Positions 12,477-33,182 of a stretch of 64,000 nucleotides of DNA are shown piece by piece. Every line of letters begins with the position of its first letter. Within the stretch, counting starts at the first letter, position 1. Below the pieces are notes generated by a model. The model made no database searches. It saw only the letters and a program-made list of their open reading frames with translations, and had not been told where the DNA came from. The stretch comes from a virus. The stretch is from positions 69,215 to 133,214 of the IMG/VR virus record IMGVR_UViG_3300036770_005816, one strand, 5' to 3'. Both the position numbers and the translations under genes were made by a program.

Positions 12477-12778
12477 TGGAAAACGAACCACTCGCCGACG
12501 AAAAAACTTATGTAGTCACATGGAAAACCGTCGTAACCCTGAACCCGACAAGCGACCAAGAACTTGACGAAAGTTGGGCTGTCCTTACCGCCCGAAACAC
12601 GATGCGAGACCTTGTCGCCGACCCGGAACACCCGGACAACTGGTTCGAAGTCGAGTCAATCGGGAACAGTCCCGCGACCCGAACATATGTTCGCCTAACG
12701 GACGCGATTGACAACTACGGGACTGATAACTTCGCTGCCCGCATGGAAGCGAAGTATGGAATAACCGACCCGAAGTAA
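12477..12778 (+). CDS. hypothetical protein
   Basis: C-terminal part of track ORF 12281..12778; start uncertain. Confidence 0.5.
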
Positions 12779-12807
12779 GCCGCGGTTTCCTGACGGTGGC
12801 GGAAAGC
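12668..12807 (+). repeat. polar composite element copy (AGTCCCGC / ACGGGACT / GACGGTGGCGGAAAGC)
   Basis: motifs at 12668, 12717 and 12792. Confidence 0.65.
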
Positions 12808-12888
12808 CGGGCGGGGAGCCGCCCTTGTGCGGGTCGGGCTGTGCCTGAATCACGGGTTTCGTGATGTGATGGCGGTTCGCTACCCATC

Positions 12889-12966
12889 GCACACTTCGTA
12901 ACACCCCGTGCGTAATCTCGGTATCACCTACTAGCCCACCTTCGGGTGGAGAAAGCGAGATACCCA
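12889..12966 (+). promoter_or_regulatory. expression cassette
   Basis: GCACAC-N13-GTGCGTAAT...CTACTAGc CCACC-TTCG-GGTGG AGAAAG. Confidence 0.75.
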
Positions 12967-13455
12967 ATGTCCACCGCCACCCTTCCACCGCTCACGCGCA
13001 CCGAGCGCGTTGTTGCGTGGCTCCGCGATAACGCGGGCGACAACAACTTCCTGCGTTCCGTTCTTGCGAATTACGACCGTTGGGGTCGTCTGTCCGACAA
13101 GCAACTTGACGCGGTTGAGCGCAACATGAACCGACCCGCGCGCGTTGCGAACCCGAACCCCGTCACCGAAGTCGGCATGTACCGCGATGACGCGGGTGTC
13201 GTGTTTCGCGTGAAGTTGTCCAAGCAGGGCAGGCTGTACGCGATGCGTTTCGTTCCCGAAGCGCAGGTCAAGTCCGAGCGTTTCGTCTACGCGGGTGGTG
13301 CGGTTCGCGCACTTCGCGCGGATAACCGCATGAGCGTCGCGCAGGCGCAGGCACTTGGCGTTCAGTTCGGCATCTGCTGTGTCTGTGGCGCGGAACTCAC
13401 CGCGAGCGAGTCCGTCGCTAACGGCATCGGACCGGTGTGCGCTAAGCGCGTCTGA
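12967..13455 (+). CDS. DUF6011-like zinc-finger protein
   Basis: C-terminal CCVCGAELT..ESVANGIGPVC; N-terminal FLRSV...GRLSDKQ. Confidence 0.7.
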   Translation: MSTATLPPLTRTERVVAWLRDNAGDNNFLRSVLANYDRWGRLSDKQLDAVERNMNRPARVANPNPVTEVGMYRDDAGVVFRVKLSKQGRLYAMRFVPEAQVKSERFVYAGGAVRALRADNRMSVAQAQALGVQFGICCVCGAELTASESVANGIGPVCAKRV

Positions 13456-13471
13456 CGCGCTAGGCGGGTTT

Positions 13472-13512
13472 CCCCCGTCTCCGTACCTTCGGGTGCGGGG
13501 GCGGGGGTTTCG
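13472..13512 (+). terminator. GC-rich hairpin terminator
   Basis: CCCCCGTCTCCGTACC-TTCG-GGTGCGGGGGCGGGGG followed by TTT. Confidence 0.7.
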
Positions 13513-13549
13513 TCGTTTCTAGGGGCTTCTCCGCGCGTCTAGCAGGGTT

Positions 13550-14176
13550 CTACGGGGTCACCTTCTTGGTGCGCTTGCATAGGTGCGCCCACTTCTCCCC
13601 GTAGGTACACGGGTTCCACGGGTTCCAACCCGAATAATCGTAAAGCAGTTTCCCTGCCCGCAGGTTCGTGAGCGGGTCAAGTAACGGTTCCTGTTCGCAG
13701 ATACCCATGTCTAGACAGATACGCGCCCACTTGTTGCGTTTCAGGTCGTAGTTCACCCCGTTGATTTGGAGTAGACCCGTATCCGAGCGGTGATTCCACT
13801 CGCGTACCCGCAGGATTTCGCAGGTTTCGCTAGGGACATCGCCACCACGCAGGTTCGGACACCCGCCCGACTCCCGCAGGATTATCGCCCGCAAGGTCGG
13901 GAGATGCTCAGGTAGCCACCCCGCTTCGAGCGCCAGGTCGTCGAGCCAGTCCACCTGCCCATGCCTAAACACAATGGGGGCGGGGGCGGCGGGGAGTCCC
14001 GTCTCCGTCGCCACCCTGTCGGGTGCTGGCGGGACTACGAAATCGGGTCTAGTTTCCGAGATAATTACTTGTGTTTCTGGTTTTGCGACGTTTTCTGGTG
14101 CCGGGTCAATCCGGGAGACCACCCCGAATACTGCGCCATAGAAAATAGTTATCGCTGTTCCTACTTTGAGTAACAA
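13550..14176 (-). CDS. exported lytic transglycosylase (SLT/lysozyme-like)
   Basis: signal/TM N-terminus; IILRESGG (catalytic Glu), DTGLLQIN, NLRAGKLLY...GWNPW. Confidence 0.75.
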   Translation of the reverse strand: MLLKVGTAITIFYGAVFGVVSRIDPAPENVAKPETQVIISETRPDFVVPPAPDRVATETGLPAAPAPIVFRHGQVDWLDDLALEAGWLPEHLPTLRAIILRESGGCPNLRGGDVPSETCEILRVREWNHRSDTGLLQINGVNYDLKRNKWARICLDMGICEQEPLLDPLTNLRAGKLLYDYSGWNPWNPCTYGEKWAHLCKRTKKVTP

Positions 14177-14822
14177 AATTGTTTCCTTTGTTCGGTTGAT
14201 GTGATGTGTATTCGTTTCCGGAGTCCGTTCTCCGTCTAATAATCTGATAACAAGTATACCTGTTGGGGGTTTTCGGGGTCAATAAGCAGCGCACGTGCAG
14301 CGCAGCAGCCAGATTTTTGATTTTTTTTCGCTTTTTGGGAGGTCCTGCGGGAGGTCCTGTTGGGCTGCCCGCGTCGCCTGCTGTCTAGTCCCGCAAATGG
14401 CTTGGTTGTTGGGTTTGGTGGGCGGGACTGTGGTGTGGTGGGGTGGGGGTTGGGTCGGGTTGTTATCGGGTCGGGTGGTGGTTGGGGAGAAGAACACTTC
14501 GGTTTTTTGGTGTGACGCGGTTCACATCAGGTTTCAGGTGCGAATAACCCCGCCCGTGTCGGTTCGGGCGGGGGTTCGGTCGGCTACGGGTTCAGGGTGT
14601 CGCGTGGTGCGCGCACCACCAACACACTATGTCGTCGTGGCGGTCACTCCAAGTAGGCAGATAGTTGTCATGCCTCTCCGTCATTACATCATCACAGATA
14701 GGACACTCGCGTCCTTCGTGCTCGTTGCTCATAGGTTATTTCCCCCCTTTCATCATGAAGTAGTTCGCTACCACTATGACCACGCCGTAGGTGACTAAGA
14801 ATGTCGCTACATAGTTCACGGG

Positions 14823-15005
14823 TCATTCACCGCGCTCGGGTAGTGGTTGTATGTCCCATTTCGTGCAGTGTCCGTCGTAGCACGCTTCGCATACGACAGT
14901 GCCGTCGTACTCGTAGTCGCTTCCGTCGGGGAGTATCCCGATAGGTGCTAGCCACCACTTGTCCGTGACGGTTTCGCAGTACTCGCAGGTTCGTTCATCG
15001 TTCAT
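14823..15005 (-). CDS. small zinc-finger protein
   Basis: CEYC...CEAC. Confidence 0.55.
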   Translation of the reverse strand: MNDERTCEYCETVTDKWWLAPIGILPDGSDYEYDGTVVCEACYDGHCTKWDIQPLPERGE

Positions 15006-15331
15006 CGCGCGCACCTCACATACTTCTCGCGGATAGCGATACTGTCGTGGTGACGCGCACGCGACGGTCGGTGTGTCTTTCTCTGCCATTGACGCTGAGT
15101 CATCGTGAGATACGCGAGACGGTGCTCACGCTTGGCACGGTAGATAGCGCGGAACATCTCCGAGTATCCTCGCGCCTTCGCGTCACGCAACGCCATGACG
15201 GTTTTTGTGTCCTCTACGGGTACGCGGTATCCGCTCACCATTTCGTTGTAGATAGCCCACATAATTTTGTCGGTTTCCGTGCCTTCTTTGAGAAGGTTCG
15301 GCATACCCGATTGGGTTTCATACTTGCTCAT
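15002..15331 (-). CDS. hypothetical protein
   Basis: preceded by full cassette (15332-15408). Confidence 0.7.
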   Translation of the reverse strand: MSKYETQSGMPNLLKEGTETDKIMWAIYNEMVSGYRVPVEDTKTVMALRDAKARGYSEMFRAIYRAKREHRLAYLTMTQRQWQRKTHRPSRARHHDSIAIREKYVRCAR

Positions 15332-15409
15332 TTCGGTATTCCTTTCCCCGCCCTTCGGCGGTCTAGTAGTTGCTGATTACATTACGCACGAATCGTCGTG
15401 AAGTGTGAT

Positions 15410-15811
15410 TCACCGCGACGGGTAGAACGGAATCTGCCCCAAGTAGAACCCGTTGTCGTCGTACTGAGATGAGAGAAACGCTCGGTGCTCGTTTTCTATC
15501 TTGCGTCGCTCGTCGTCCGCGCGAAGGTCATCTAGCCACATTTTGAGACCTTCACCGCTCGCGCCGTATTCCATTTCGCCGTAGAACGGGTTCGGGTAGC
15601 CGACGATGTTGCCGACCCACTTGTCCGCGTCACGCGCCGATGTTTCTCCGCTGAATACGCGCTCGGTTGCCCAACCGTTATTTTCACCGCCCGATACCGC
15701 GATGCGGATTCGGATTAGGTACGGGTTCACGGGTGCGCGCCATACGCTCACTTCGTATCCGAGTGAGAGTGCCTGCGATTTCTTTTCCCAAGTGATTCCT
15801 AAGAGACTCAT
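15410..15811 (-). CDS. hypothetical protein
   Basis: preceded by ACTACTAG CCC-TTCG-GGG leader. Confidence 0.7.
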   Translation of the reverse strand: MSLLGITWEKKSQALSLGYEVSVWRAPVNPYLIRIRIAVSGGENNGWATERVFSGETSARDADKWVGNIVGYPNPFYGEMEYGASGEGLKMWLDDLRADDERRKIENEHRAFLSSQYDDNGFYLGQIPFYPSR

Positions 15812-16032
15812 TCTGATTCCTTTCCCCCGAAGGGCTAGTAGTTGATTCCTACCCCCCACAATAACAAGGGGGTGTAATACGGTTATCAGCGTATCGGGTC
15901 AGAACGGGTATCACGCGACAGGGGGTGTAACACGGTTTCACGACCACGCGATTTCGGATTCCCACTTTTTCGCAACGCCTTCACCCGCCCGCAAGAGACA
16001 CGCGAACCGAAACCGCACGCAGGACACGGGCG

Positions 16033-16192
16033 AGTCCCGCCCGAAAGACAGAAGATTGGAGTCCCGCGCGCGTATTCATTGTCGCGGGACTAGCGACTGT
16101 CGAGAGCGGACGGGACTGTTGGGCGGTGGCGCGCTTGTTGGGTCGCGTTGCGTTTGTTGCGTTTGTTGCGTTTCCCGACGGTGGCGGAAAGC
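16033..16192 (+). repeat. polar composite element copy
   Basis: AGTCCCGC at 16033 and 16060; RCGGGACT at 16084 and 16110; GACGGTGGCGGAAAGC at 16177. Confidence 0.75.
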
Positions 16193-16307
16193 GGGGGAAT
16201 CTTGACTCGTGCTGTCGGGTTTCGTGTGGCGGGTGAACGCTGAGAGTGTTCGTTCGGCTACTTGCTCGTACTCGTACCCTTAGTGTCACGAGTCACATCG
16301 CAGAATG

Positions 16308-16387
16308 TCACTACCGTACTACACCCGTGCGTAGTATGTATGTCATCAACTACTAGCCCGACGAGAGTCGGAGAAACGAGATACGAA
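16308..16387 (+). promoter_or_regulatory. expression cassette
   Basis: TCACTA-N13-GTGCGTAGTA...ACTACTAGc CCGAC-GAGA-GTCGG AGAAA. Confidence 0.75.
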
Positions 16388-16864
16388 ATGAGCAAGAAGA
16401 AGAAGGGCAAGGGCAAGAAGCGCGAGAAGAAGCCACTACGCGAATGGACTCAGAAAGACCATTTCCCTATCCAAGTGAACGGCAAGAAGTTTCGTTGGGA
16501 CATCATCAACGACATCATCAACGAGCGAGTCGCTATCACCGTCTCGCCGATTCCACCGAACATTCGTGATTGGAAATGCGAAGATTGCGGAGCACCCAAG
16601 CGGTACATCACCGAGCGCGAAACACCGAGCGACCACGACGACTACAAGATTATCGGGTGCGTGTTCTGCTACAAGTTCATCACTATCTATCTGAACGAGC
16701 GCAAGCACGGCAACACACCTATCCGTCCTGACCAAGTAGCGAAAGGAATCACGCGATACTACACACCGTGTTGCGGAGTCGAGATAAACCTGAGTCACAA
16801 GACGATTGAGCAAGTACGCGAAGCGTGTCGGCAAGATTGTAAGACGAGAAAGGTGGTGAAGTGA
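16388..16864 (+). CDS. basic Cys-rich hypothetical protein
   Basis: Lys-rich N-terminus; CEDC, CVFC, CC motifs; start set by cassette RBS. Confidence 0.7.
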   Translation: MSKKKKGKGKKREKKPLREWTQKDHFPIQVNGKKFRWDIINDIINERVAITVSPIPPNIRDWKCEDCGAPKRYITERETPSDHDDYKIIGCVFCYKFITIYLNERKHGNTPIRPDQVAKGITRYYTPCCGVEINLSHKTIEQVREACRQDCKTRKVVK

Positions 16865-17004
16865 TGAAACGGAGAGAATGGAACGACGCTGATAGGCAAG
16901 CGTTCGCAGACGGAGCGCGTACACGAGCGCAGACCCACGCGAACAAGAAGCGCGCGCGCAACAAGCGCGAGTGTCGGGAATACCGTTGGCGCGGAGCGGA
17001 GTAA
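16864..17004 (+). CDS. small basic protein (46 aa)
   Basis: TGATG overlap with upstream stop; read manually. Confidence 0.5.
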   Translation: MKRREWNDADRQAFADGARTRAQTHANKKRARNKRECREYRWRGAE

Positions 17005-17086
17005 TCCGCGAAACGCCATAACACCCACACCGTAAAGTGTGGATTACACAACTAGCCCGACGCGAGTCGGAGAAAGAGATGAAGTA

Positions 17087-17374
17087 ATGAGCAACTATCC
17101 GAATGACCGAGAGCGTCCAACAATCGTGTTGGACAAGCGGTACGACGCGCGCACGAAATGGGTGACGCGCGAGTATGGCGAGTTCGTCGGCAAGACAATC
17201 AAGGAAATCCGACCGATGCGTAAATCCGAATCCGAAGCGTTCGGGTGGGATTACGAGAGCGAAGATGCGTTCGCAATCGTGTTCACGGACGGAAGCGTTC
17301 TAATCCCGTCGCAAGACCCCGAAGGAAACGGAGCGGGTTGGCTATTCGTCGCAGATGCGGTGGTAGCGAAATGA
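17087..17374 (+). CDS. hypothetical protein
   Basis: hairpin leader; SQDPEGNGAG motif. Confidence 0.7.
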   Translation: MSNYPNDRERPTIVLDKRYDARTKWVTREYGEFVGKTIKEIRPMRKSESEAFGWDYESEDAFAIVFTDGSVLIPSQDPEGNGAGWLFVADAVVAK

Positions 17375-17586
17375 GCGAAATCACCGAAACGCGCATCGAG
17401 CATCGCTACACCGTCACATTCGTCGGAGCGTATTTCGTGCTATCCATTCACATCTTCGCAGAGAACGAAGAACAAGCGGTGGATAACGCAGACGCGCTAT
17501 TGGGCGACTACTACGGGTGGAATGTGAAAGATGTTTCGCAGGAAATCACCGTAGAGGACGAGGGAGATTCACGAACAACACCGTGA
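17371..17586 (+). CDS. hypothetical protein, paralog of 17957..18139
   Basis: shared VxFVGxYFV...A...A...EITVE/EVTVE pattern. Confidence 0.65.
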   Translation: MSEITETRIEHRYTVTFVGAYFVLSIHIFAENEEQAVDNADALLGDYYGWNVKDVSQEITVEDEGDSRTTP

Positions 17587-17665
17587 GCGTCACGCTCACG
17601 CCTACATCGTGCGTAATACAAGCACAACACCAACACCGACGAGAGTCGGAGAAAGAGATAAAGAA

Positions 17666-17905
17666 ATGTTCACCATACCCAACACCGAGGATTTCCACCT
17701 AGAAGTAATGGAGCGTCGTGCGCGACTCGTCGGCAAGCGCGTCCGTTTGGATTACACGAGCGACCCATACACGAAACTCGTGCGCGGTGACGAAGGCATC
17801 GTGCGAAGCATAGATGTATTCGGCACGGTACACATCGCGTGGGACAACGGAAGCACACTCGGACTCATCGAGGACGCGGGCGACTCGTTCACAATCATCG
17901 GGTGA
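17666..17905 (+). CDS. DUF4314-domain protein
   Basis: GKRVRL..TSDPY..L..GDEG.V..ID..GTVHIAWDNGSTLGL...GD. Confidence 0.8.
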   Translation: MFTIPNTEDFHLEVMERRARLVGKRVRLDYTSDPYTKLVRGDEGIVRSIDVFGTVHIAWDNGSTLGLIEDAGDSFTIIG

Positions 17906-17956
17906 AATCCCGATGCCACTACCAACACCGACAAGCGTCGGAGAAAGAGAAACGAA

Positions 17957-18139
17957 ATGAGCAAGACCGAAACGAAAGCACCGAGAAAGAATGTCATCTT
18001 CGTAGGCGACTATTTCGTCACCGTGTTCACGGTGGAAGCGAGCGACGACGACACCGCGATAGCGCAAGCGGAGCAGATGTTCGCAGACGAGTTCGGGAGC
18101 GACATCGGCTACAACGAGGTGACAGTAGAAGAAGCGTGA
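17957..18139 (+). CDS. hypothetical protein, paralog of 17371..17586
   Basis: hairpin leader CCGAC..GTCGG AGAAAG. Confidence 0.65.
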   Translation: MSKTETKAPRKNVIFVGDYFVTVFTVEASDDDTAIAQAEQMFADEFGSDIGYNEVTVEEA

Positions 18140-18206
18140 TGTCACATCACGCCTACATCGTGCGTATCCATAGCACGACATCAACCACGACAGAAAGGTA
18201 AATGAA

Positions 18207-18314
18207 ATGAACGAACCAATCGGCAAGTGTCAAGAATGTGACCGCGAGTTTCATCTTCTCGACGAGGACGAAGCGAACGAGTATTGGTACGGACACGATT
18301 GCGAAGCGTCCTGA
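18207..18314 (+). CDS. 35-aa zinc-binding peptide
   Basis: CQEC...HDC; has own cassette promoter (18142) and AGAAAGG RBS. Confidence 0.5.
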   Translation: MNEPIGKCQECDREFHLLDEDEANEYWYGHDCEAS

Positions 18315-18363
18315 CGAAATAGACAGAATGGAGCGAACCGAAAGGTTCGTTCTATTCGCGTCT

Positions 18364-18499
18364 AGTCCCGCGCGAAGACGCGCGAATGCGGGACTGCCAC
18401 CCCCGCGATGAAACAACGGGACTGTTTGTGTGGCGCGCGTTTGTTTGCTTTTGCCGACCGCGCGCGAGTGCGGGCGACCCATTGACGGTGGCGGATAGC
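18364..18499 (+). repeat. polar composite element copy
   Basis: AGTCCCGC 18364; RCGGGACT 18388 and 18416; GACGGTGGCGGATAGC 18484. Confidence 0.7.
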
Positions 18500-18556
18500 C
18501 GTGCGCAGCGCGATGCGGGCGCACCCGTTAGGGATACGCCCGCAAGTGTCGCGGTG

Positions 18557-18880
18557 TCAGTTCGCTGACTTATCCACGAAGTATTCGGGGTAATGGTTCT
18601 CGACCTGCCCGTCGCTATCGGGGTTAGCGACTTCGTACGCGTTCAGGTAAAGAGTGCCGTCCTTGACACCTTCGCCTTCGTTGCCGTCGCTGTCTACCGT
18701 GTGGTAGGTCTCTTCGCGAAGGTCTACGACGATTACTTCGTCGTGTACGCGGTTGCCGTCTGCGTCCTTCTTCGCGATAGCGATGACGACCATCGCGCCT
18801 TCGCGCACCGCGCCTTCGTCGATGACTGCGCGGACTACGGTCTTACCGCACTCCATTTCCTTGATGCTTGTGACTGTCAT
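18557..18880 (-). CDS. hypothetical protein
   Basis: preceded by cassette promoter and hairpin. Confidence 0.7.
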   Translation of the reverse strand: MTVTSIKEMECGKTVVRAVIDEGAVREGAMVVIAIAKKDADGNRVHDEVIVVDLREETYHTVDSDGNEGEGVKDGTLYLNAYEVANPDSDGQVENHYPEYFVDKSAN

Positions 18881-18996
18881 TTCGGTATTCCCTTCTCCCC
18901 GTGTGGGGGTTGTTGTTGTTGTTAGTTACGCACGATGTGTTCGGTGGTGTGATGTGACGGGTGCGCGCCCCACCTTGACGCGCACCCGTCGTTAGT

Positions 18997-19299
18997 TCAC
19001 TTGTTGTTCGGTCGTCTGCCGATAGCACCGCGCACTTCGCGCACCTTCGGGGTGCTCGGTGTGTTGAGCAACCACTCGCCTGCCGTTCGGTACGCGTTCA
19101 GGTATCCGCCGTCCACGATGCCACTCGTGAGTCGGATTAGTCCGTTGACATACTCCGCTTCGGTGACATCTAGGTCTTCGAACTCGACGCTACCGCTCAG
19201 GTAGTCACTCCACGCGTTGACGATGATGTCACGCCCGTAAAGTTCTCCGATGCCGATGTAGTTGTCTGCGATGACTTCATCTAGTGAGAAGTCTCTCAT
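18997..19299 (-). CDS. hypothetical protein
   Basis: start MRDFSL after cassette leader with AAGGAG RBS. Confidence 0.65.
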   Translation of the reverse strand: MRDFSLDEVIADNYIGIGELYGRDIIVNAWSDYLSGSVEFEDLDVTEAEYVNGLIRLTSGIVDGGYLNAYRTAGEWLLNTPSTPKVREVRGAIGRRPNNK

Positions 19300-19387
19300 G
19301 TGTTGTCTCCTTCTCCCCGTTCGGGGTGTTGTTGTTGATAGTGATACGCACGGAACACCATCAAGTGTGATGCTCCGTGCGCGTGGT

Positions 19388-19768
19388 TCACTTGCTTGCG
19401 TGTTGCTCGGTGAGCGCGTGCCACCTTGCGTACCGCTCGTCTGAGTTGAGTAGCGCGAGCGTCTCCGCTTCGTATGCGAGCAACGCCTTCGGGGAGTATC
19501 GCGCGACCTGACGGGTCGGGAGATACTCGTACACCGCTTCTTCGCCGAATAGCGCGAACTCGGTGACTTCGTAGCCACCGCCGTCGCGATAGACGGACTC
19601 ACGAAGAACCGCCATGAATCGCTTGCGGTCTGCGTCGTGGTGAATGTCGAGCGTCACCTGCTTGCGGTTGCCGTCCGCGTCGGGTTGCGCTTCGGGGTTG
19701 CGCCAACGGTAGACGACTTCGCGCTTGCCAAGTCGCTCCCTTCGCTCCGAGCCGATGATGATAGTCAT
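19388..19768 (-). CDS. hypothetical protein
   Basis: preceded by full cassette. Confidence 0.7.
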   Translation of the reverse strand: MTIIIGSERRERLGKREVVYRWRNPEAQPDADGNRKQVTLDIHHDADRKRFMAVLRESVYRDGGGYEVTEFALFGEEAVYEYLPTRQVARYSPKALLAYEAETLALLNSDERYARWHALTEQHASK

Positions 19769-19868
19769 TTCTTATTCCCTTCTCCGACTTGTGTCGGGCT
19801 AGTAGTTGGTTATTACATTACGCACGGGGTGTAGCAGGGTGTGACATCGCACCCTGCCCACCTTCGGT

Positions 19869-20186: not shown

Positions 20187-20307
20187 TACCTATCTCCTTC
20201 TCCGACTGTCGTCGGTTCTAGTAGTTGATACACATAGTACGCACGGGGTGTTACATAGTGTGACATCGCGTGTGATGCGACCTGCGTCACATTGGGTACA
20301 CGGGTGC

Positions 20308-20377
20308 TCGACCGAGCGACCGACCGACCGAGCGGGCGACCGAGCGGGCGACCGACCGAGCGACCGACCGAGCGAGC
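20308..20377 (+). repeat. low-complexity CGAC/CGAG/CGGG tetramer tract
   Basis: CGACCGAGCGACCGACCGACCGAGCGGGCGACCGAGCGGGCG... Confidence 0.7.
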
Positions 20378-20403
20378 AGACGCACGCGCGCGCACGCGCG
20401 GGG

Positions 20404-20497
20404 AGTCCCGCGATGGTTTCGCGGGCGCGGGACTGTGCGTGTGGGGCGCACCCAAAGATGTGAGAGATGAACAAGTTTCCCGACGGTGGCGGAAAGC
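20404..20497 (+). repeat. polar composite element copy
   Basis: AGTCCCGC 20404; GCGGGACT 20427; GACGGTGGCGGAAAGC 20482. Confidence 0.75.
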
Positions 20498-21294: not shown

Positions 21295-21358
21295 GTTATC
21301 GTGCGTAGTAATAACAACACCTACTAGCCCGACCGAGAGGTCGGAGAAAGAGCAAATA

Positions 21359-23166: not shown

Positions 23167-23288
23167 AGTCCCGCGTTTCGCGCGCGGTAGCGGGGCTGTT
23201 GTGTGTGTGCTTGTGGTGCGGGACTTCTCGCGGGCGGGCGCGCCTGCGCGTGCGCGTGTGTGCGTGTTTCGTGACGGTGGCGGAAAGC
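23167..23288 (+). repeat. polar composite element copy
   Basis: AGTCCCGC 23167; GCGGGACT 23218; GACGGTGGCGGAAAGC 23273. Confidence 0.75.
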
Positions 23289-26399: not shown

Positions 26400-26549
26400 T
26401 CCCCAACTTGCCTTTCAGTCGCACACTACCAAGTGTGTTATTCTGAGAGACGAGCGAGAGGGGCTTTTTCATCTCCTTTCACCCTCGGTCGTTCCGACGA
26501 ACTCGGTGGCATCGTTCTAGTAGGCGATGTCCACCGAGTCTCGTTGTTT

Positions 26550-26759
26550 CTAGTCTCGTTTCCGTAAGCGCGTCGAGATACCCAAGTCAAAGTATCTGAC
26601 TGCGATGAAGCACAACGAAGCAACGAGCGAGTCAATCCACGAGACATTCACGCCGAGCGCGTTCAATCCGTGATAGACGAAAAAAGAAAAGAACGAAAGA
26701 CCCGCGACAAGTCCGAGAACGAAAGTGACAATCACACCAACAACTTTGGTGACGGTCAT
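26550..26759 (-). CDS. small membrane protein
   Basis: two hydrophobic helices; start uncertain. Confidence 0.55.
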   Translation of the reverse strand: MTVTKVVGVIVTFVLGLVAGLSFFSFFVYHGLNALGVNVSWIDSLVASLCFIAVRYFDLGISTRLRKRD

Positions 26760-26863
26760 ACGCTCACGAACATTGTCGTCTTGGTCGTACACTTGCGGAG
26801 TGTTGAAACGCGATGAGGCATCACCGCGACCATGTGCTGATGTTCTCCAACTTTCGTTAGGCA

Positions 26864-27244
26864 TCAACGAACCTTAGTTCGCTTCACAATCTGATGAACA
26901 CGCTGACGCGACAACTTGTATTTGGTCGCTAGGTCGCGCGCTGATGTGCCTTCCTGATACTCGCTCGCGATACGCGCATCACGCTCAGGATTGTCATGTT
27001 TCCCAGGTTTCTGCTTGTCCCATTCCCAACCTGCGAACGCTGAGAGTTGCTCAACGCGCTCACGCGCGAGCCTTCCCTGTCGCTTCTGCTGTCGGTTGTA
27101 GGCGACCCACGCGCCGAGAGCGATGTTCCTGCCACCGACCTGCTCAATGTGAGTGGTCGGAACGAGCGCGGTTCCCGTCCTGTTCGCGTATTGCGTCAAT
27201 GCTTGAAGGTGGATGTTCCAACGGTCTGTTCTGCTGAATGTCAT
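26864..27244 (-). CDS. helicase-associated (HA) domain + HTH protein
   Basis: W...LQAL..Y....G...VP...LGAWV..NR...L.....L....GWEW (HA) then SARDLATKYKLSRQRVHQIV. Confidence 0.8.
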   Translation of the reverse strand: MTFSRTDRWNIHLQALTQYANRTGTALVPTTHIEQVGGRNIALGAWVAYNRQQKRQGRLARERVEQLSAFAGWEWDKQKPGKHDNPERDARIASEYQEGTSARDLATKYKLSRQRVHQIVKRTKVR

Positions 27245-27285
27245 AGTCAAGACATTAGTTGACCGAACAGGTGTTCGGTCGCAAT

Positions 27286-27542
27286 AGTCCCGCCACTTCT
27301 TCAAGAGTGGGCGGACTTCATAGTCCCGCTTCATGCGCCCGACGAGCGGTTTGGCGGGACTGCGTCTGCTTGTTTTGGGGCGGGACTTTCGGGTGGTGGT
27401 GCGGGGGCGGGTTTTCATTTGTTCGACGGTAGCGGAAAGCGGGCTGTTGGCGACGGGGGTCCTCTGTTTGTGTGTGAGAAAGTCGTTTTTTGTTTGGGTT
27501 GTGTGTGGGGGTTCGTCGGAGTTCTTGACGGTGGCGGAAAGC
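27286..27542 (+). repeat. polar composite element copy (two 16-mers)
   Basis: AGTCCCGC 27286 and 27322; GCGGGACT 27354 and 27380; 16-mers at 27425 (variant) and 27527. Confidence 0.75.
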
Positions 27543-27722
27543 GTCCAAGTTTGGATTGAGTCCAAACTTTTATTGAGTCAAGGGGGTTGACTTCAGGTCA
27601 CAATGTCCGTATTATGGTGCGTAGTAATAGCGACAACCGAACGACAGGGAAACCGTATTACACCCCTACCGTAAGGTGGTCAACATAAAGCAACACACAA
27701 CACACATGGAGGTACTAAAGAA

Positions 27723-27992
27723 ATGGGCAGAAACTTCACCGAAGGAATGGCGGAAGCGGAACGCGACGGTCTCATTGACCTGAACACCGCGATACGACAT
27801 CACCTTCAACACAACTTCTATCCACCCGTACACACGGCGTTCGTTGACACGGCGTTGGAAGCGATTACCAACGCGAACAACGGCGACTACGACACCGAGG
27901 TCACTATGGCAAACGGTCTCGTTCGCACGACAGCGTTCGTCATTGACGGGTTGCGACTTGAAGCATTCATCTACGAAACGGAGGCAAACTAA
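27723..27992 (+). CDS. hypothetical protein
   Basis: GGAGGT RBS after cassette promoter. Confidence 0.7.
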   Translation: MGRNFTEGMAEAERDGLIDLNTAIRHHLQHNFYPPVHTAFVDTALEAITNANNGDYDTEVTMANGLVRTTAFVIDGLRLEAFIYETEAN

Positions 27993-28327
27993 TGAAGGAA
28001 GCACATGAAGGCAAGCGTGGTCACAAGTTGCTCACGCAAGAAATCCGCAAGCGTCTCCCCGCTCTCTACACAACGGAAGAAATCCCGTTGGAAGAGAAGG
28101 TCGCGCAAGTCAAGTTCTTCTCACCGTACAACGGTTGGCGTTGGTACGCGGTTGAGTTTGACGGTGAGGACATCTTTTGGGGTTATGTCGAGGGTTGGGA
28201 GAACGAGTGGGGTACTTTCTCGCTCTCGGAACTCTCAGAAACGACCGTGTTCGGCGGAGTCCCCGCGATTGAGCGCGATTGTTTCTTCACCCCGAAGAAG
28301 GTCGGAGAAATACTGACCGTCGCGTAA
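27992..28327 (+). CDS. DUF2958-like protein
   Basis: LPALY...VKFFSP...WRWYAVE...FWGYV...EWGTFSLSEL...IERD. Confidence 0.8.
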   Translation: MKEAHEGKRGHKLLTQEIRKRLPALYTTEEIPLEEKVAQVKFFSPYNGWRWYAVEFDGEDIFWGYVEGWENEWGTFSLSELSETTVFGGVPAIERDCFFTPKKVGEILTVA

Positions 28328-28420
28328 CTGTGTTGCACCCCCACCGTAAGGTGGGGGACATCACACGGGCGAAGGTTCGTGCGTAATAGAAGTATCAACA
28401 ACACACGGAGGTAATAAAGA

Positions 28421-28591
28421 ATGAGAACGAAAACTGTCGGGTTCAGAGTCATTGACCAAGAAACGGGCGATGTCCTCGTGACACTCCCCTTGACTTTCCC
28501 CATTGGGGAGAGCATCAAGAACTACGAGAACGCGGGTTACACCGTGTCTTGGGAATGGGCGCACGAACCTGATTGTTCGGTCGGGGGTTGA
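28421..28591 (+). CDS. small hypothetical protein
   Basis: read manually; cassette promoter 28361 and GGAGGT RBS. Confidence 0.6.
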   Translation: MRTKTVGFRVIDQETGDVLVTLPLTFPIGESIKNYENAGYTVSWEWAHEPDCSVGG

Positions 28592-28666
28592 CAAATCCCC
28601 GAATACCGAATACGCTAGGTAATAGAAATACACAACACACAAACAACACACGGAGGTAATAAAGAA

Positions 28667-29254
28667 ATGCCAAATCATTGTTCAAACTGGTTGGATGTCT
28701 TGGGTGACCGCGACAGTATCGCGGAGTTCAAGAAACTCGTAACCACACCAAACGAAAACGACCGCAGACCGTTGGAAGAGGCGAGCGAAATCATCAGCAT
28801 CTACCAACGCGCGTACCCCTGTCCTAAGGAGTTGTACGAAAGCGACAAGTGGTATGAGTGGTGCAGTTCCTCTTGGGGAACCAAGTGGGGCGACTACGAA
28901 ACCTCACTGAACGGCGAGTCCGACACCCATTTGGAGTTCGCGTTCACGACCGCATGGGGACCGGGAGTTGAGGGGATACTCAACATCTCACGAAAGTTCC
29001 CGAACCTTGTGTTCATCACGGCGTACGAGGAAGGCGGAATGTGTTTCGTCGGAGCGTTCGGCGTTCAGAACGGCGACATTCTCGCGGATGTAGAAGGCTC
29101 GTACCCCGAACTCAGCGACTCGGAAGTAGAAAGCGACGGATACGACTACGACGACCACTTTGAGAAAGTCGTTGAGGAAGTTGACCGTTGCAAACGCATG
29201 GTCGTAGAGGGTTTGTCCGACGAAACAAGGTCTCTGTTCAGCGTAACAAACTGA
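28667..29254 (+). CDS. DUF1281/YubB ferredoxin-like family protein
   Basis: MPNHCSN...WYEWC...WGTKW...FTTAWGP...YEEGG..FVG. Confidence 0.8.
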   Translation: MPNHCSNWLDVLGDRDSIAEFKKLVTTPNENDRRPLEEASEIISIYQRAYPCPKELYESDKWYEWCSSSWGTKWGDYETSLNGESDTHLEFAFTTAWGPGVEGILNISRKFPNLVFITAYEEGGMCFVGAFGVQNGDILADVEGSYPELSDSEVESDGYDYDDHFEKVVEEVDRCKRMVVEGLSDETRSLFSVTN

Positions 29255-29377
29255 ACGAGTGCAATACCCCGTGTGAACCCCTCACTCGGAAACGGGTGAG
29301 GGGGCACGGAGAACATCACACTTACGAAAGTTCGTGCGTAATAAACACAACAACACACAAAACGGAGGTAATACGAA

Positions 29378-29908
29378 ATGCACACGGGAATAGTTCTAGC
29401 GATAGAAGCAGACGACAACGAAGAGGCAGTCCAAAAGATTGAGTTCTTCAACGAACACAACGCAAGTTGGTCGGATTGGAACGAGCACGGCGGTCGTTGG
29501 GAAGAGGATTTACCCAACGCGGTGTTGCGATACACCGACAACCCGACCCTGTTCATGGAGAAGGTGCGCGAGTTCCAAAAGTTCACGAACGACACCAAAG
29601 AGCGTTACCTCAGCGAACTCGGAGATGTAACTATCAAGGAACTCGTAACGAGTGAGGAGTATCTCCCGTTCCACAAGAAGAAGGGGAAACTCAACGAGAT
29701 GACCCAAAGCGAGCGCGATGCGTACCTCGACAAATCTCTCGCATTGTTCAGAGCGAAGAAACTTCTCCAACTTCAAGACGGGGAGTTTGATTGCGACCAA
29801 CACTTCTACGACGCGGAGTCGCACAGCGTGAGCGACGAGTATCTGTTGAAGCGGATTGAGGAAAGACCGAACAGGCAGTTCCTCGTGGTGTGGGACTACC
29901 ACTACTGA
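29378..29908 (+). CDS. hypothetical protein
   Basis: WSDW..HGGRW...FLVVWDYHY; cassette upstream. Confidence 0.7.
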   Translation: MHTGIVLAIEADDNEEAVQKIEFFNEHNASWSDWNEHGGRWEEDLPNAVLRYTDNPTLFMEKVREFQKFTNDTKERYLSELGDVTIKELVTSEEYLPFHKKKGKLNEMTQSERDAYLDKSLALFRAKKLLQLQDGEFDCDQHFYDAESHSVSDEYLLKRIEERPNRQFLVVWDYHY

Positions 29909-30010
29909 TGCGTTCGGGGGTGGGGTTGACAAAACGATGTCACACCCGTACAATGAATGTGCGTAATACGAATACAACACAACTACTAAACACACGGAGG
30001 TAATAAAGAA

Positions 30011-30292
30011 ATGGAAGCAGAAACAAGACACGAAATCCTCAACTTCACCTACAACGACAGTGGCATCACCGTCTCGCAGTTGGATGAGGACTACTTCGCA
30101 AAGTATGAGGTTCGTTGGACGGACTTCATTGCGAACGAATGGGTGGAGACATACCACGAACTTTCGGAAGCACTCGCACGAGTCTCAGCACTCGTGAAGT
30201 GCGGTGAAGGGGATTGGCAGAGAGGTTTCCTGCAACAGCAAAACGATTTCGTCGCTCAGGCGCACGACTTCTTCGGAAAGGTGGTCAAGTGA
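30011..30292 (+). CDS. hypothetical protein
   Basis: cassette upstream (29940). Confidence 0.7.
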   Translation: MEAETRHEILNFTYNDSGITVSQLDEDYFAKYEVRWTDFIANEWVETYHELSEALARVSALVKCGEGDWQRGFLQQQNDFVAQAHDFFGKVVK

Positions 30293-30741
30293 GTAACTAT
30301 CTCATCATTCACAAAGACGGAAGCGTCATCCCGTTGGACGGCGCATACCTCGTTGACACCGACAAACTTGACGAGACAGGCAAGGCGTTGCTCGCGGAGT
30401 GGGACGAGACGGGTTCGGATGAAACCGCACGCGACCTCACCACGCAAGGCAACGACCTCGCACGCATCCTCGGAAGGGTTGGCTACGGCTCGCTCGGCTA
30501 CAACAACTGCATCGCATTTGATGTAGTTGGGCTACGCGAGGAAATCAAAGCGAAGATTGACTCAGGAGTGTGGGACGACGACCCTGCGGTGCAACGCGCA
30601 TCACGGTTCACCGACGAAGAGTTGGAGTTGTTCGGCTCATACATTCTTGACAGCGACTACCTGTGGAATGTCTACAACGAAGAAATCAACAGCAACCTAC
30701 GACCATTCATCAAAGAAGTTCTCAAGGAGGAACTCAAGTGA
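30289..30741 (+). CDS. hypothetical protein
   Basis: GTGA overlap. Confidence 0.6.
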   Translation: MSNYLIIHKDGSVIPLDGAYLVDTDKLDETGKALLAEWDETGSDETARDLTTQGNDLARILGRVGYGSLGYNNCIAFDVVGLREEIKAKIDSGVWDDDPAVQRASRFTDEELELFGSYILDSDYLWNVYNEEINSNLRPFIKEVLKEELK

Positions 30742-30992
30742 CAACGAAGAAAACCAAGAAACCAACAAAAAAGAAGCGCAAGACACCCGCGTATCGGGTT
30801 GTCAAGAAACGCGCACCCGTTGAACCGCGCGGTCGCATCACGAAGCAGAAAGTCTCGGAGTACGAGATGATTGTAAAGATGCTCGAGATGTTCGGTCACG
30901 ACGAGGATAACGACGGTCAAATCGTCATCTACACGAACCACCAATACGACAAGCGTGGCAGGGTCGTTCCGTTCAAGGGAGACAACCGATGA
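30738..30992 (+). CDS. basic hypothetical protein
   Basis: GGAGG RBS, GTGA overlap. Confidence 0.6.
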   Translation: MTTKKTKKPTKKKRKTPAYRVVKKRAPVEPRGRITKQKVSEYEMIVKMLEMFGHDEDNDGQIVIYTNHQYDKRGRVVPFKGDNR

Positions 30993-31231
30993 CGGTGGAG
31001 GAAACAGTGCAACCGTTTGAGTGGGAAGTGTCGTGGGCGAACCTGTACGACGGCGAAAACCTGAAAGATGTATTAGGTCAGGCGGTCGCAGAGTTGCAGG
31101 ACGCGGTGAACAAGAACTACGGTGCGACAATACTCGTAATCCGTAACCGCAACACGGGCGAGAAGTTCGTGTACGACATCGCAGAAGAGGAAATAATCAA
31201 GCACGAGGTCACGGAACAACCCATTGACTAA
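30989..31231 (+). CDS. hypothetical protein
   Basis: ATGA overlap; begins within a 16-mer variant. Confidence 0.6.
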   Translation: MTVEETVQPFEWEVSWANLYDGENLKDVLGQAVAELQDAVNKNYGATILVIRNRNTGEKFVYDIAEEEIIKHEVTEQPID

Positions 31232-31302
31232 GTACGACAAACTAAATAAGATGTACAGGAGCAGATAATGAAAAACAATGACGGTGGAGGAAAGCGGTAA
31301 AC

Positions 31303-31629
31303 ATGAACTTCGGAGACAGCGATTTCAAGTTCGTCAACGACGACCCCGATGTGCTGATGCGAATCAAATCTGACGACGGGTCAGAGGAAGTCGTCTTTTT
31401 GACGACCGACGGAGACGCATTGGACGGAAAACTTTTCAATGTTCAGCAAGGCGCGAAAGGACAATGGTTCGTCGTCATCAACCAAAAGATGTTGGACGAC
31501 AGGATTGAGAAGTCCATTGAGGCGAACGCTGACGACTACGGGAAGAAGCACGCAATGTTCCTCCCCATTTCGTTCATCATCCAAGAGGCGTTGGCTGAAG
31601 TGATGCGACGAGAAGAGGACACACAATGA
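31303..31629 (+). CDS. hypothetical protein
   Basis: GACGGTGGAGGAAAGC immediately upstream. Confidence 0.65.
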   Translation: MNFGDSDFKFVNDDPDVLMRIKSDDGSEEVVFLTTDGDALDGKLFNVQQGAKGQWFVVINQKMLDDRIEKSIEANADDYGKKHAMFLPISFIIQEALAEVMRREEDTQ

Positions 31630-31937
31630 AAACGAAAAACCCTTTAGATTACATCTGTCCGCGTTGCACAGGTCTCATCCCATCTGCTGAGCAGTGGGGC
31701 GAATACATCGGTGCGTTGTCTCGACACACCCGCAACGGTGAGGAACCGTTGGAGATTTGCTCCGACTGCGGAACCGAGGAAGCAGTGGAACAACATTTCG
31801 GTGAACTCACACCACGCGAGAAGTATCCCGTCGTACACGACGGTGCAATCGCTCGAGTGTTCAAACGCATCACGGTCGTCGAGCGTCACAACGACGGTTC
31901 GGGAGAGTCCGGCATCTGGTTGGACAAAGGTTCATGA
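31626..31937 (+). CDS. zinc-finger protein
   Basis: CPRC...ALSR...ICSDCG. Confidence 0.65.
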   Translation: MKTKNPLDYICPRCTGLIPSAEQWGEYIGALSRHTRNGEEPLEICSDCGTEEAVEQHFGELTPREKYPVVHDGAIARVFKRITVVERHNDGSGESGIWLDKGS

Positions 31938-31970
31938 AAACCGTTGACGGTGGCGGAAAGCAGGTAGACG

Positions 31971-32177
31971 ATGCCCATCCATAGAGAGTTCACTGCGTCA
32001 TGCGACAAATGCGGAAAAAAGTTTGAAGGTTCTTCTGATTCGTCTAAAGACCTGAAAGAAAAAATGCGGAAAGCGGGATGGCGGACAGGCAACGTGTACT
32101 TCTGCGACGAATGTGAAAGCATCTGCGTTCACTGCGGAAGCAAGAAGGCTCCGCATGTGATGAAGAGCGACACCTAA
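31971..32177 (+). CDS. small zinc-ribbon protein
   Basis: CDKC...GW...FCDEC...CVHC. Confidence 0.6.
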   Translation: MPIHREFTASCDKCGKKFEGSSDSSKDLKEKMRKAGWRTGNVYFCDECESICVHCGSKKAPHVMKSDT

Positions 32178-32203
32178 AAACAAGTGACGGTGGCGGAAAG
32201 CAG

Positions 32204-32386
32204 ATGAACGGCAAACGATTGGACGGACTACGAAGAGGTCAACCCAAAGAACGCGTCATTCGTAGCGTCGCATGGACGAAAGAACAATGGGAACAGGTAG
32301 AGGACATGGCGATGCTGAGCGGAATGCAACCATGCGAATACATACGGAGCGCAGTGCTCGCGTCAGGTGTCATCAAACGACACTAA
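32204..32386 (+). CDS. ribbon-helix-helix-like protein
   Basis: IRSVAWTKEQWEQVEDMA...EYIRSAVL. Confidence 0.6.
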   Translation: MNGKRLDGLRRGQPKERVIRSVAWTKEQWEQVEDMAMLSGMQPCEYIRSAVLASGVIKRH

Positions 32387-32392
32387 ACATGT

Positions 32393-33182
32393 GACGGTGG
32401 CGGAAAGCCAGCGAAGAAGTCCCGCTACATGAGTTGAGAGCCGCACGACCCTAAGGAGGCGCGCACAACGAACCCGAGAGTGGTTACTCGGTTGTTGCAC
32501 GCTGGAGATATCGTGCGGCTCCCACACAAATAGTAGAGGAGCGGAGGTGGCGAGGTCAACACACAAACACCCCGCCACCTCCGAGGACTTTCCGTTTTCA
32601 GGGGTGGAGGACGAAAATGGAAAGTCAAAAGAAGATTAGTAAACAATAAGTCCCGTCACTGCAACAGCAGTAAGTCCCGCTTCGCGTGTTCGTCATCGCA
32701 TCACCAAGAGTCCCGCCCCACCTCGTCACCACACCAACCACAACCGGTAGATGGTGAGGAGGTGCGAACACCATTAGTTGGGGAGTGCACGAACGGGACT
32801 GTCGTGCTGCTAGAGTGTCTGCTCAGTCACAAGACCCCAATGAATACAGCAGTAATCGGGTGACGGTGGCGGAAAGCACGGATGTCCGAAAGCGAAGAGA
32901 TGGATTCGGTTTACCCGGAAACGGGAAACCCTGATTGTGCTGCTCTCGAACCGGTTGGCGAGAATCGAAAGGTTCCCCCACACCCCCTCCAAAGAGGTCC
33001 GGGTGGTTTATTCGTGGATTCCACGAAAAACCATCTTTCTGTGATGTGACGTCAACGTGTGAAAAAACGTCCAGGTCGGACGTTTCTTTCAAGATGCTTG
33101 ACGTCGTTTGTTACGTCTGCTAACTTTTGTTTGGTGATTGCCGATAAAAACCCGCTGTTCCCAAGTGACGGTGGAGGAAAGC
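32393..33182 (+). other. repeat-dense non-coding region, candidate replication origin
   Basis: three 16-mers (32393, 32862, 33167), four AGTCCCG (32418, 32649, 32673, 32709), ACGGGACT 32793; upstream of a replication-type gene. Confidence 0.45.

Follow-up and report, generated by a model that had tools for sequence, protein, structure and literature searches.

The final 64 kb of the 133,214-bp IMG/VR virus record IMGVR_UViG_3300036770_005816, here called the window, carry an array of an asymmetric 16-nucleotide word, GACGGTRGMGGAWAGC (the 16-mer), interspersed with shorter inverted octamers built on AGTCCCG. The record comes from a large, uncultured phage and has genes for a portal, a protease/capsid fusion, a ribonucleotide reductase, a primase-helicase and two DNA methylases. 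On the left the array is preceded by a DNA-metabolism module (ParB_N, RuvC-like, SSB, DUF932 and SNF2 helicase genes), and on the right it stops at a gene for a protein resembling the O replication initiator. Genes in the window were mapped with a home-made codon-bias caller; homology checks covered the anchor genes and some small genes. The features are collected in Table 1.

Within the window the 16-mer matched 13 times, always on the plus strand, against an expected count of 0.00, and 0 of 100 dinucleotide shuffles contained any match. Allowing up to three mismatches gave 15 matches (chance mean 0.79), consisting of the 13 copies, one loose copy at 30991 (+) and an unrelated three-mismatch match at 53020 (−). 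A scan of both strands of the full record found 13 forward and 0 reverse copies, all between window positions 12792 and 33182. A preliminary description, made from the letters of the window, had listed the same 13 coordinates and the loose copy, and the shuffled controls now add weight to that list; the polarity is regional rather than genome-wide, however, as the array occupies ∼15% of the genome. Copies of this G-rich, purine-rich word stand 200–700 bp apart near the O-like gene and 2–4 kb apart farther off.

Table 1. Features of the array region, in window coordinates.
Feature	Position	Strand	Remarks
SNF2-family helicase gene	8186..10111	−	left-hand array anchor with DUF932 (6733–7782); orientation kept in all relatives
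16-mer copy 1	12792..12807	+	exact; 13 nt past stop of + open reading frame (ORF) 12347–12778; 159 nt before + gene 12967
Two inverted octamer pairs without 16-mer	13995..14430		13995/14030, 14387/14423
Octamer array	16033..16118		two AGTCCCG then two CGGGACT, about 25–27 bp spacing
Inverted octamer arrays like 16033..16118	12668–12725, 18364–18424, 20404–20435, 23132–23226, 27286–27388
16-mer copy 2	16177..16192	+	exact; divergent gap, minus gene 15410–15811 / plus gene 16388–16864
16-mer copy 3	18484..18499	+	GGATAGC variant; convergent junction; then hairpins, then 3' end of minus gene 18557–18880
16-mer copy 4	20482..20497	+	exact; divergent gap; TTGACT-N17-TATTAT promoter-like site 91 nt on
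16-mer copy 5	23273..23288	+	exact; tandem + genes either side; X4 strain contig switches partner at base 23288
HA + Mor-like helix-turn-helix (HTH) gene, 111 aa	26864..27199	−	conserved, minus in all relatives
16-mer copy 6	27425..27440	+	A at position 7; divergent gap adjoining HTH gene
16-mer copy 7	27527..27542	+	exact; terminator-like hairpin directly after, then promoter-like site
Loose 16-mer	30991..31006	+	3 mismatches, GGAGG form; overlaps start of + ORF 30989–31231
16-mer copy 8	31280..31295	+	GGAGG form; ATG 31303 is 7 nt on
16-mer copy 9	31946..31961	+	exact; upstream stop codon 8 nt before; ATG 31971 9 nt on
16-mer copy 10	32186..32201	+	exact; ATG 32204 2 nt on
16-mer copy 11	32393..32408	+	exact; upstream stop codon 6 nt before; octamer array after
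Octamer array before O-like gene	32418..32801		direct 32418, 32649, 32673, 32709; inverted 32794; iteron-like look
16-mer copy 12	32862..32877	+	exact; ATG 32882 4 nt on
16-mer copy 13	33167..33182	+	GGAGG form; GTG 33185 of O-like gene 2 nt on; right-hand array end
O-like protein gene, 120 aa	33185..33547	+	matches C-terminal part of replication-initiation phage families; bounds array right in all lineages examined

According to the window gene map, a plus-strand gene follows 12 of the 13 copies, and only the copy at 18484 faces a convergent minus-strand block. Six copies lie in long gaps, with the plus gene 159–282 nt away, and in three of these gaps an identical TTGACT-N17-TATTAT stands between 16-mer and gene. 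From the window alone, the natural reading is a start-associated or operator-like element, for which the closest model is the start-associated sequence (SAS) and extended start-associated sequence (ESAS) of cluster K phages. Because 12 of the 13 copies precede plus-strand genes, the window by itself cannot separate polarity along the chromosome from the direction of transcription. The preliminary description had held orientation to be independent of transcription here, which the window itself does not show.

Two short ORFs translate the 16-mer in frame 0, one at 31268–31302 (M-K-N-N-D-G-G-G-K-R-stop) and one at 31931–31981 (starting M-K-T-V-D-G-G-G-K-Q); both are probably incidental. Three further ideas about the word were dropped. 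A periodic spacing of ∼350 bp between copies is explained equally well by the sizes of the small genes, pairing of an upstream TTTCC with GGAAA in a hairpin lacked consistent covariation, and a reading of the GGAAAGC half as an extracytoplasmic function-type promoter fitted only two of seven loci by eye. Rfam (gathering threshold) and ARAGORN, run on the window, returned two tRNAs and no match at the motifs.

The word recurs well beyond this record. An exact-match scan of IMG/VR returned 106 stretches, and several contigs held 2–6 copies. Sixteen whole IMG/VR records were searched at up to two mismatches and contained 13; 6, 9, 10, 12, 12; 12, 9, 3, 8, 6, 7, 6, 5, 1 and 4 copies. In every record all copies lay on one strand (123 of 123), which leaves 107 informative copies, as the first copy of each record sets its orientation. 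Record G005 is fragmentary and comes from almost the same phage as G006. At up to three mismatches, 15 sequence sets gave 121 forward and 0 reverse copies. Copies on the opposite strand and a lack of conservation in related phages had both been named in the preliminary description as outcomes that would speak against a polar element; what emerged was 0 of 121 reverse copies and 16 records that carry the word. The relatives were collected through the 16-mer itself, and the sample therefore consists of lineages that have kept it.

The array consists of 6–13 co-oriented copies spread over 18–23 kb, and in two complete or near-complete relatives the array again takes up just 18–23 kb. Although the complete relative G006 is classed as having direct terminal repeats, its sequence closes on a 127-bp overlap within the primase-helicase gene; we therefore regard it as a circular assembly that offers no evidence for such repeats as physical ends. 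Ten positions of the word are invariant in 109 copies, a figure inflated by the use of the word to find them. Outside the 16-mer, family-wide conservation is limited to a T at −1 and an A at −7 and at −6. The longer 5' flank is specific to each lineage, being similar within a genome and different between genomes, and blastn no longer aligns the flanks even of G000 and G002, with genes 72–83% identical in DNA. The core is retained across lineages whose proteins are just 30–50% identical.

Judged by shared words only, the family occurs in subsurface, marine, lagoon and freshwater metagenomes. Bacterial genome contigs contained 120 stretches with the exact 16-mer, a single copy each in unrelated taxa, compared with ∼280 estimated by chance in 596 Gb, and we read these single copies as chance. 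Among cultured phages, megablast with the 12–34 kb portion of the window gave no match. Streptomyces phage Gilgamesh, which has the closest cultured portal (∼42%), lacks the word, with two three-mismatch matches versus one in a reversed control. None of the cultured phages searched has the module, and the motif defines a family of uncultured phages.

The relatives allowed the direction of the word to be compared with that of the genes around it. Each relative was oriented with the word on the plus strand; the orientations of anchors and of flipped orthologues rest on tblastn, and the other gene calls were home-made. The anchor genes keep the directions seen in the window (DUF932 −, SNF2 −, AAA_5 +, 510-aa +, HTH −, O-like +), and in several lineages the small genes that lie between helicase and AAA_5 gene have the opposite direction. 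The window genes 5011–5409, 17666–17905 and 23563–23967 are on the plus strand here and on the minus strand in G007a, G012, G011 or G010. Conversely, the gene at 19869–20186 is minus here and plus in G004, G005 and G010, and those at 15002–15331 and 18557–18880 are minus here and plus in other lineages.

Across 110 copies, the strands of the left and right neighbouring genes were +|+ in 52, −|− in 19, −|+ in 17, +|− in 9 and −|? in 1, the remaining copies lying inside a plus-strand ORF (10) or a minus-strand ORF (2). The most extreme case is G012, in which the region has 26 predicted minus genes and 0 plus genes and six copies of the word nevertheless stand on the plus strand; its AT skew is negative throughout, and it has strong minus-strand terminators. 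The region of G007a has 25 minus and 5 plus genes, and G011 and G010 are mixed. In G007a, G011 and G012 a copy lies between the homology-verified minus-strand genes DUF932 and SNF2. Gene blocks have therefore been replaced or turned repeatedly without a single copy appearing on the other strand, and the orientation of the word is under selection relative to the chromosome and not to the genes. The preliminary description had suggested a DNA-level function on the grounds that orientation is tied to the chromosome rather than to transcription; the 19 −|− contexts and G012 bear this out, whereas the window does not.

The placement of the word bears on selection as well. Although 68% of the region is coding, 95 of the 110 copies fall outside predicted ORFs (binomial 5e-32). 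In G004 and G005 a MazG-like gene in the dense cluster carries the word in frame as D-G-G-G-K, with a three-residue insertion, and the orthologues in G000, G001 and G010 have neither the insertion nor the word at that place. The orthologue of the 510-aa gene in G004 and G005 contains a mid-gene 16-mer. The diverged flanks, the intergenic preference and the MazG-like insertion are signs that the DNA word itself is under selection.

The octamers behave differently. AGTCCCGC matched 28 times in the window against 2.15 expected. The heptamer AGTCCCG occurs 50 times in the genome (29 plus, 21 minus), always between window positions −1090 and 32794, where 4.6 were expected; outside this interval there were 0 against 4.7 expected (P=0.009). 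Seven loci show the order given in the preliminary description, with plus-oriented octamers followed by minus-oriented ones and then the 16-mer, the final octamer lying 37–67 nt before it. Also as described there, the octamers at 12668 and 12718 fall within ORF 12347–12778, and the octamer pair at 14387 stands without a 16-mer, as does a second pair (Table 1). The proposal that octamers and 16-mer form one composite unit did not survive the comparison with relatives. Octamers lie within 150 nt upstream of the 16-mer for 8 of 13 copies in G000, 6 of 9 in G002, 5 of 10 in G003 and 6 of 8 in G009, in G011 they are downstream of 6 of 7 copies, and none were found near the 16-mer in G001, G007, G008, G010, G012, G013 and G015. 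With octamers missing from half of the lineages, the two appear to be separate elements that mostly have long intergenic gaps in common, rather than parts of one machine. Single octamers also occur inside genes in the first 12 kb of the window, in both orientations, and their presence in sense and antisense alike suggests a double-strand DNA-binding protein. Just upstream of the O-like gene, G000 and G002 share a direct array of four octamers that looks like iterons.

Within the DUF932 and SNF2 genes (window 6547–9952) single AGTCCCG heptamers follow one another at fairly regular steps of 387, 393, 334, 877, 352, 348, 359 and 355 bp, with neighbours grouped by orientation. In G002, in which the gene is 78% identical in DNA, the final four of these steps have the same lengths. 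To the left of the octamer pair in the divergent gap, window 20293–20400 holds a GC-rich tandem repeat with a period of 8–12 nt and CGACCGAG-like units.

The gene content of the record points to a host group. Two WhiB-family genes scored above the Pfam cut-off, one in the window (34229–34456, −) and one elsewhere in the genome (C1:60010–60204, −); among 14 control genomes only Corynebacterium matched this family. The portal is closest to its counterparts in Streptomyces, Brevibacterium and Gordonia phages, at ∼42% identity. Given the WhiB genes and the actinobacteriophage-like portal, the host is most likely an actinobacterium.

A conserved pair of genes occupies window 24130–26399, inside the array. 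One encodes an AAA_5 (MoxR-type) ATPase; the product of the other, 510 aa long, has invariant HExxH and MIDAS-like DGSGSM motifs. This pair is the best-conserved portion of the array region (66–83% and 44–71% identity in relatives), and tblastn of the 510-aa protein against cultured phages gave no match. We considered both proteins as DNA enzymes; a MoxR-type ATPase and a protein with HExxH and DxSxS motifs are not evidently such. The HA and HTH protein is a candidate DNA-binding factor, as judged from its domains. A 55-aa protein at 33557–33724 has a weak repressor-like match (E=3e-4), and the protein scans, which included no integrase search, identified no repressor or lysogeny module.

Farther out, the minus strand of window 50793–63727 carries a long run of tail-fibre-like genes, comprising five Gly_rich_2, one collagen-repeat and one fn3 gene and one with a Mtd_N (major tropism determinant) start. 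The tRNA genes are tRNA-Ile(TAT) at 34054–34127 (−) and tRNA-Arg(TCT) at 37381–37454 (+). Upstream of the window, two long minus-strand ORFs of 823 aa (genome C1:63095–65566, window −6119..−3648) and 791 aa (C1:60723–63098, window −8491..−6116) gave faint matches only, to a DUF3626/MuF-like polyvalent protein and to a C-terminal DUF5872; their products may be injected proteins.

Both strands of window 12890–30010 also contain repeated leader modules, namely ACACCCC-N5-TAAnGT, GTGCGTAATAG, and ACTACTAG with a short hairpin, GGAGAAAG and ATG. They precede many small genes, follow gene orientation and are also conserved in G001 and G002. Examples on the plus strand lie at 16320–16395, 20637–20700, 23441–23540, 24001–24133 and 27649–27725, and on the minus strand at 15328–15414, 19764–19850 and 20218–20269. 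These modules may represent a phage-specific promoter/leader class. Minus-strand operons in the array share all the remaining leader modules with the plus-strand operons and never have the 16-mer. Three promoter-like TTGACT-N17-TATTAT sites with identical hexamers, all on the plus strand (20589–20617, 23369–23397 and 27587–27615), are each followed by GTGCGTAGT, and a fourth strong promoter-like site, TTGACA-N17-TACAAT, lies at 29926–29954.

Considering all of this, the 16-mer is probably a DNA-level, strand-specific recognition site of some kind. The site would span ∼23 bp, including the weakly conserved 5' extension, with its orientation fixed to the phage chromosome, in an array running from the SNF2-helicase/DUF932 genes to the O-like replication-initiator gene. 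A phage (or host) protein would bind it in one orientation and act on one strand. None of the substitution types seen in the word (G to T, A to T and C to A) is a wobble change, and recognition by a protein is therefore likelier than base pairing. The minus-only gene blocks weaken readings through RNA or the non-template strand, and so does the finding of no plus-strand terminator at the G012 copies. In short gaps between plus-strand genes a copy would also be transcribed and could double as a spacer between stop codon and ribosome site, as a secondary use.

As to what happens at the site, we tentatively suggest site-specific nicking, like the localized single-strand interruptions of T5, tf/LUZ24-like and phiKMV-like phages, a possibility that we rate well below even chances. 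As is typical of a nick motif, the word stands on one strand only and its strand is independent of local transcription. To our knowledge, nick motifs are the only documented class of phage DNA word that keeps strictly to one strand whatever the direction of transcription. In phage tf, which has gene sets transcribed convergently, the published account places all 14 nicks on the top strand, at the word TACTRTGMC; 17 of 17 one-mismatch variants of the word are on the same strand, and relatives of tf have a one-letter variant at similar positions, again all on one strand (PMC3517423). The same account assigns T5 and phiKMV-like phages one-strand consensus sequences of their own and gives the function as unknown (PMC3517423). 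The parallels with tf-type motifs in copy number, few-kb spacing, regional density, lineage variants and conserved positions led us to choose nicking as the single likeliest mechanism. That a protein reads the word, that its action is a nick and what the nick would be for are what we infer.

Several observations weigh against nicking or against a DNA-level site in general. A scan of ∼70 proteins, most of the small ones being without a family, turned up no nickase, HUH, HNH or relaxase-type gene. The nick motifs on record are shorter (7–19 nt) and belong to phages with fixed ends. Nicking accounts neither for the crowding of copies near the O-like gene nor for a core so deeply conserved between lineages. 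In the right-hand cluster of the window five 16-mers stand 2–9 nt ahead of start codons, and the three GGAGG variants (30991, 31280 and 33167) all directly precede start codons, which is the pattern expected of a start-associated element. Finally, the gene calls behind the orientation argument are home-made, homology having been checked for the anchors and some small genes only.

A broader form of the DNA-level reading is a chromosome-polarity signal of a kind undescribed in phages, in which a one-sided, co-oriented array read by a monomeric protein sets the direction of a DNA transaction. We consider this doubtful, if worth stating. Sites laid from the replication-initiator gene across the plastic early region might then govern fork passage, strand displacement or strand-specific cutting, and would form a fixed scaffold on which the phage family shuffles its accessory genes.

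A different account, which we judge unlikely, is that the co-oriented words are recombination linkers, short shared sequences at cassette boundaries that permit exchange, deletion and duplication through short-homology or site-specific recombination while the cassette genes are free to point either way. Co-orientation would follow from the fact that exchange is viable only between direct repeats. From one copy to the next, the genes and their directions do vary by lineage while the copies stay put, and the 5' flanks, alike within a genome and different between genomes, are what gene conversion would give. Some contigs join at the word. The fit of X4, from a strain at least 99% identical, ends at 23288, the last base of a copy, and then runs on into the 30 letters downstream of the 32862 copy. 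X5, a 90–95% relative, has joints from 23291 to 31625 and from 31933 to 31275, each within 13 nt of a copy, and further loose ends lie at 23269 in X5 and at 31273 in X7, 4 and 7 nt before copies. Among the loose ends listed, 3 of 24 fall within 10 nt of a copy, compared with ∼0.4 by a rough chance estimate. High-depth joints of X7 with short sides (21–36 letters) were left uncounted and probably reflect the repeated leader modules of another phage. None of the positions listed for the contigs was one at which many molecules begin or end, as expected of contigs and neutral with regard to nicks.

All joints come from assembled contigs, each recombinant joint being one contig among those listed, and alignments of diverged relatives start and stop at conserved islands, which inflates the number of joints at the word. 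We therefore take them to indicate that exchange happens there, and not that exchange is the purpose of the word. A length of 16–23 bp is short for homologous exchange, and the protein scans found no recombinase tied to the sites, with RuvC-like and SSB genes nearby. The linker model also leaves unexplained both the word built into the MazG-like gene by a three-residue insertion and why inversions never carried a copy along. Nicks promote recombination, and the recombinant joints at the word count for the nicking interpretation too.

A role in replication is improbable in our view, although the neighbourhood invites it. Here the words would be asymmetric sites for an initiator or a contrahelicase-type protein in a one-sided array beside an origin, serving as a fork barrier, for direction control or as an iteron-like titration array. 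The O-like initiator gene marks both the end and the densest part of the array in all lineages examined, and the array is one-sided; the surroundings form a DNA-metabolism module with SSB, RuvC-like, SNF2, ParB_N and primase-helicase genes. Asymmetric direct sites of 16–23 bp are typical of monomeric initiators or terminator proteins. However, the O-like match is restricted to the C-terminal part of replication-initiation families, the spacing of 200 bp–4 kb is unlike that of classical iterons, and no Tus/RTP-like protein was identified among the scanned proteins. We know of no such one-sided polar array described in phages.

The reading that the window itself invites, an expression signal of SAS/ESAS, stoperator or cluster EC type, would make the word a site in mRNA or one read by a regulator that controls plus-strand early genes. 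The family-wide comparison left it with little probability. The start-codon proximity and the predominance of downstream plus-strand genes in the window agree with it, as do the inverted repeats upstream of seven copies, which recall ESAS upstream of SAS, and the likely actinobacterial host, such repeats being common in actinobacteriophages and also present in T1-like phages. Cluster EC phages have an 18-bp motif in 12 copies, all oriented similarly, cluster EF phages have SAS/ESAS and cluster EI phages 30-bp repeats. In clusters K, EC, EF and EI the repeats are aligned with transcription, and the literature has yet to explain what they do. The cluster K SAS is described as a 13-bp asymmetric word of 11–19 copies in one orientation, 3–9 bp before starts, about half of them with an ESAS directly upstream, that is, 17-bp inverted repeats containing a SigA-like promoter (PMC3203893). 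Reports from 2024–2025 give the function of SAS as unknown (PMC11373665, PMC12699233), and the 21-nt repeats of T1-like phages are likewise on record (PMC11447400).

The 16-mer departs from these elements in both position and orientation. Only five of the 13 window copies lie 2–9 nt from a start, the others being 159–282 nt away or having no plus gene downstream, and across the family the next start is 0 to ∼290 nt away. Orientation ignores the genes in relatives, with 19 −|− and 9 +|− contexts and the six copies of G012 among 0 plus genes. Stoperators would be expected to follow transcription and to have a cognate repressor, and the word does not follow transcription. Only one octamer array (27259–27288) overlaps a promoter-like site, as an ESAS would. 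The copy at 16001 in G003 has an AGGAGG of its own between word and ATG, minus-strand operons that share the other leader modules never have the word, and its substitutions are not of the wobble type.

A transcription-machinery signal, such as an ops/nut-like antitermination site or a phage RNA polymerase promoter on a long plus-strand transcript, is very improbable. In combining a conserved core with a lineage-specific flank the word resembles promoters of phage polymerases, and strong hairpins or terminators follow some copies at 0–15 nt (z<−2 for 16.5% of 109). However, no T7-type polymerase, sigma region 2 or NusG-family gene was found in the genome, by scans one of which is weak, the control genomes likewise having given nothing. 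The two large ORFs look like MuF/DUF3626 and DUF5872 proteins rather than polymerases, the G012 copies lie in minus-only blocks, and the terminators that adjoin them are on the minus strand, with no plus-strand ones found at the copies. A Chi/KOPS-like oligomer, such as the preliminary description put forward, would be read by a host helicase-nuclease or translocase; the strict polarity and the G-rich, purine-rich composition agree with it, and it is nonetheless highly unlikely: Chi and KOPS signals are 5–8 nt long and statistically skewed genome-wide, whereas the word has at least 16 nt, 0 copies outside one ∼20-kb region, ten invariant positions that fall outside any single 8-mer and a sub-word, GGTGGCGG, with 17 forward and 42 reverse occurrences and thus no Chi-like skew.

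What appears new, and is well supported by the comparison of genomes, is a one-strand DNA signal in a new phage/host group that stays put while the surrounding genes flip. The preliminary description did not recognize the architecture as a described element. For this motif that holds in the literature library searched, in which the papers contained no occurrence of its 14-letter core and the 11-letter matches were unrelated primers and linkers; as a class, asymmetric repeats of actinobacteriophages and one-strand nick motifs have been described. Conserved asymmetric phage repeats are almost always filed as promoters, operators or ribosome-site variants, since they are aligned with genes. The present family is a natural experiment that separates a signal of the DNA strand from a signal of gene expression, the genes having been flipped and the word not, and it does so in a large, uncultured and apparently widespread phage group with likely actinobacterial hosts. 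If the nicks are real, an old unexplained phenomenon (T5, 1960s) would be extended to a new phage/host group with a long, trackable motif; should the words serve replication or recombination, they would reveal the organization of a hyperplastic early region. Whichever interpretation holds, the 16-mer is a specific marker for finding members of the family.

Among known systems, the PeSL cassettes of T4-type phages, which consist of a promoter and a stem-loop and follow transcription, resemble the 16-mer array as repeated intergenic cassettes that flank small variable genes and act as exchange points in a plastic region. In contrast to them, the 16-mer is neither promoter nor stem-loop and ignores transcription. 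With cluster A stoperators and the T1-like repeats it shares many asymmetric sites in short gaps that are presumed to be read by a protein; as described, those sites are oriented with transcription (PMC3203893, PMC11447400), which the 16-mer is not. The likeness to the cluster K SAS (13–16 bp, 11–19 copies) extends to asymmetry, a single orientation, the non-structural part of the genome, a frequent position before starts, inverted repeats upstream of about half the copies and conservation across subclusters beside unrelated genes (PMC3203893). SAS follow transcription in that account (PMC3203893), whereas the 16-mer stands 0 to ∼290 nt from a start and ignores gene direction in relatives, and its octamer arrays, in contrast to ESAS, are 37–67 nt off, have no consistent promoter and are absent in half of the lineages. 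The nick motifs of tf/LUZ24-like, phiKMV-like and T5 phages, as reported, resemble the 16-mer in being asymmetric, confined to one strand, independent of transcription, regionally denser and, in relatives, similarly placed with lineage-specific letters (PMC3517423). In comparison with these motifs, which have 7–19 nt and occur in phages of Gram-negative hosts with fixed ends (PMC3517423), the word is 16–23 nt long, belongs to a likely actinobacterial phage, is restricted to ∼15% of a 130-kb genome, is almost always intergenic and clusters by a replication-initiator-like gene.

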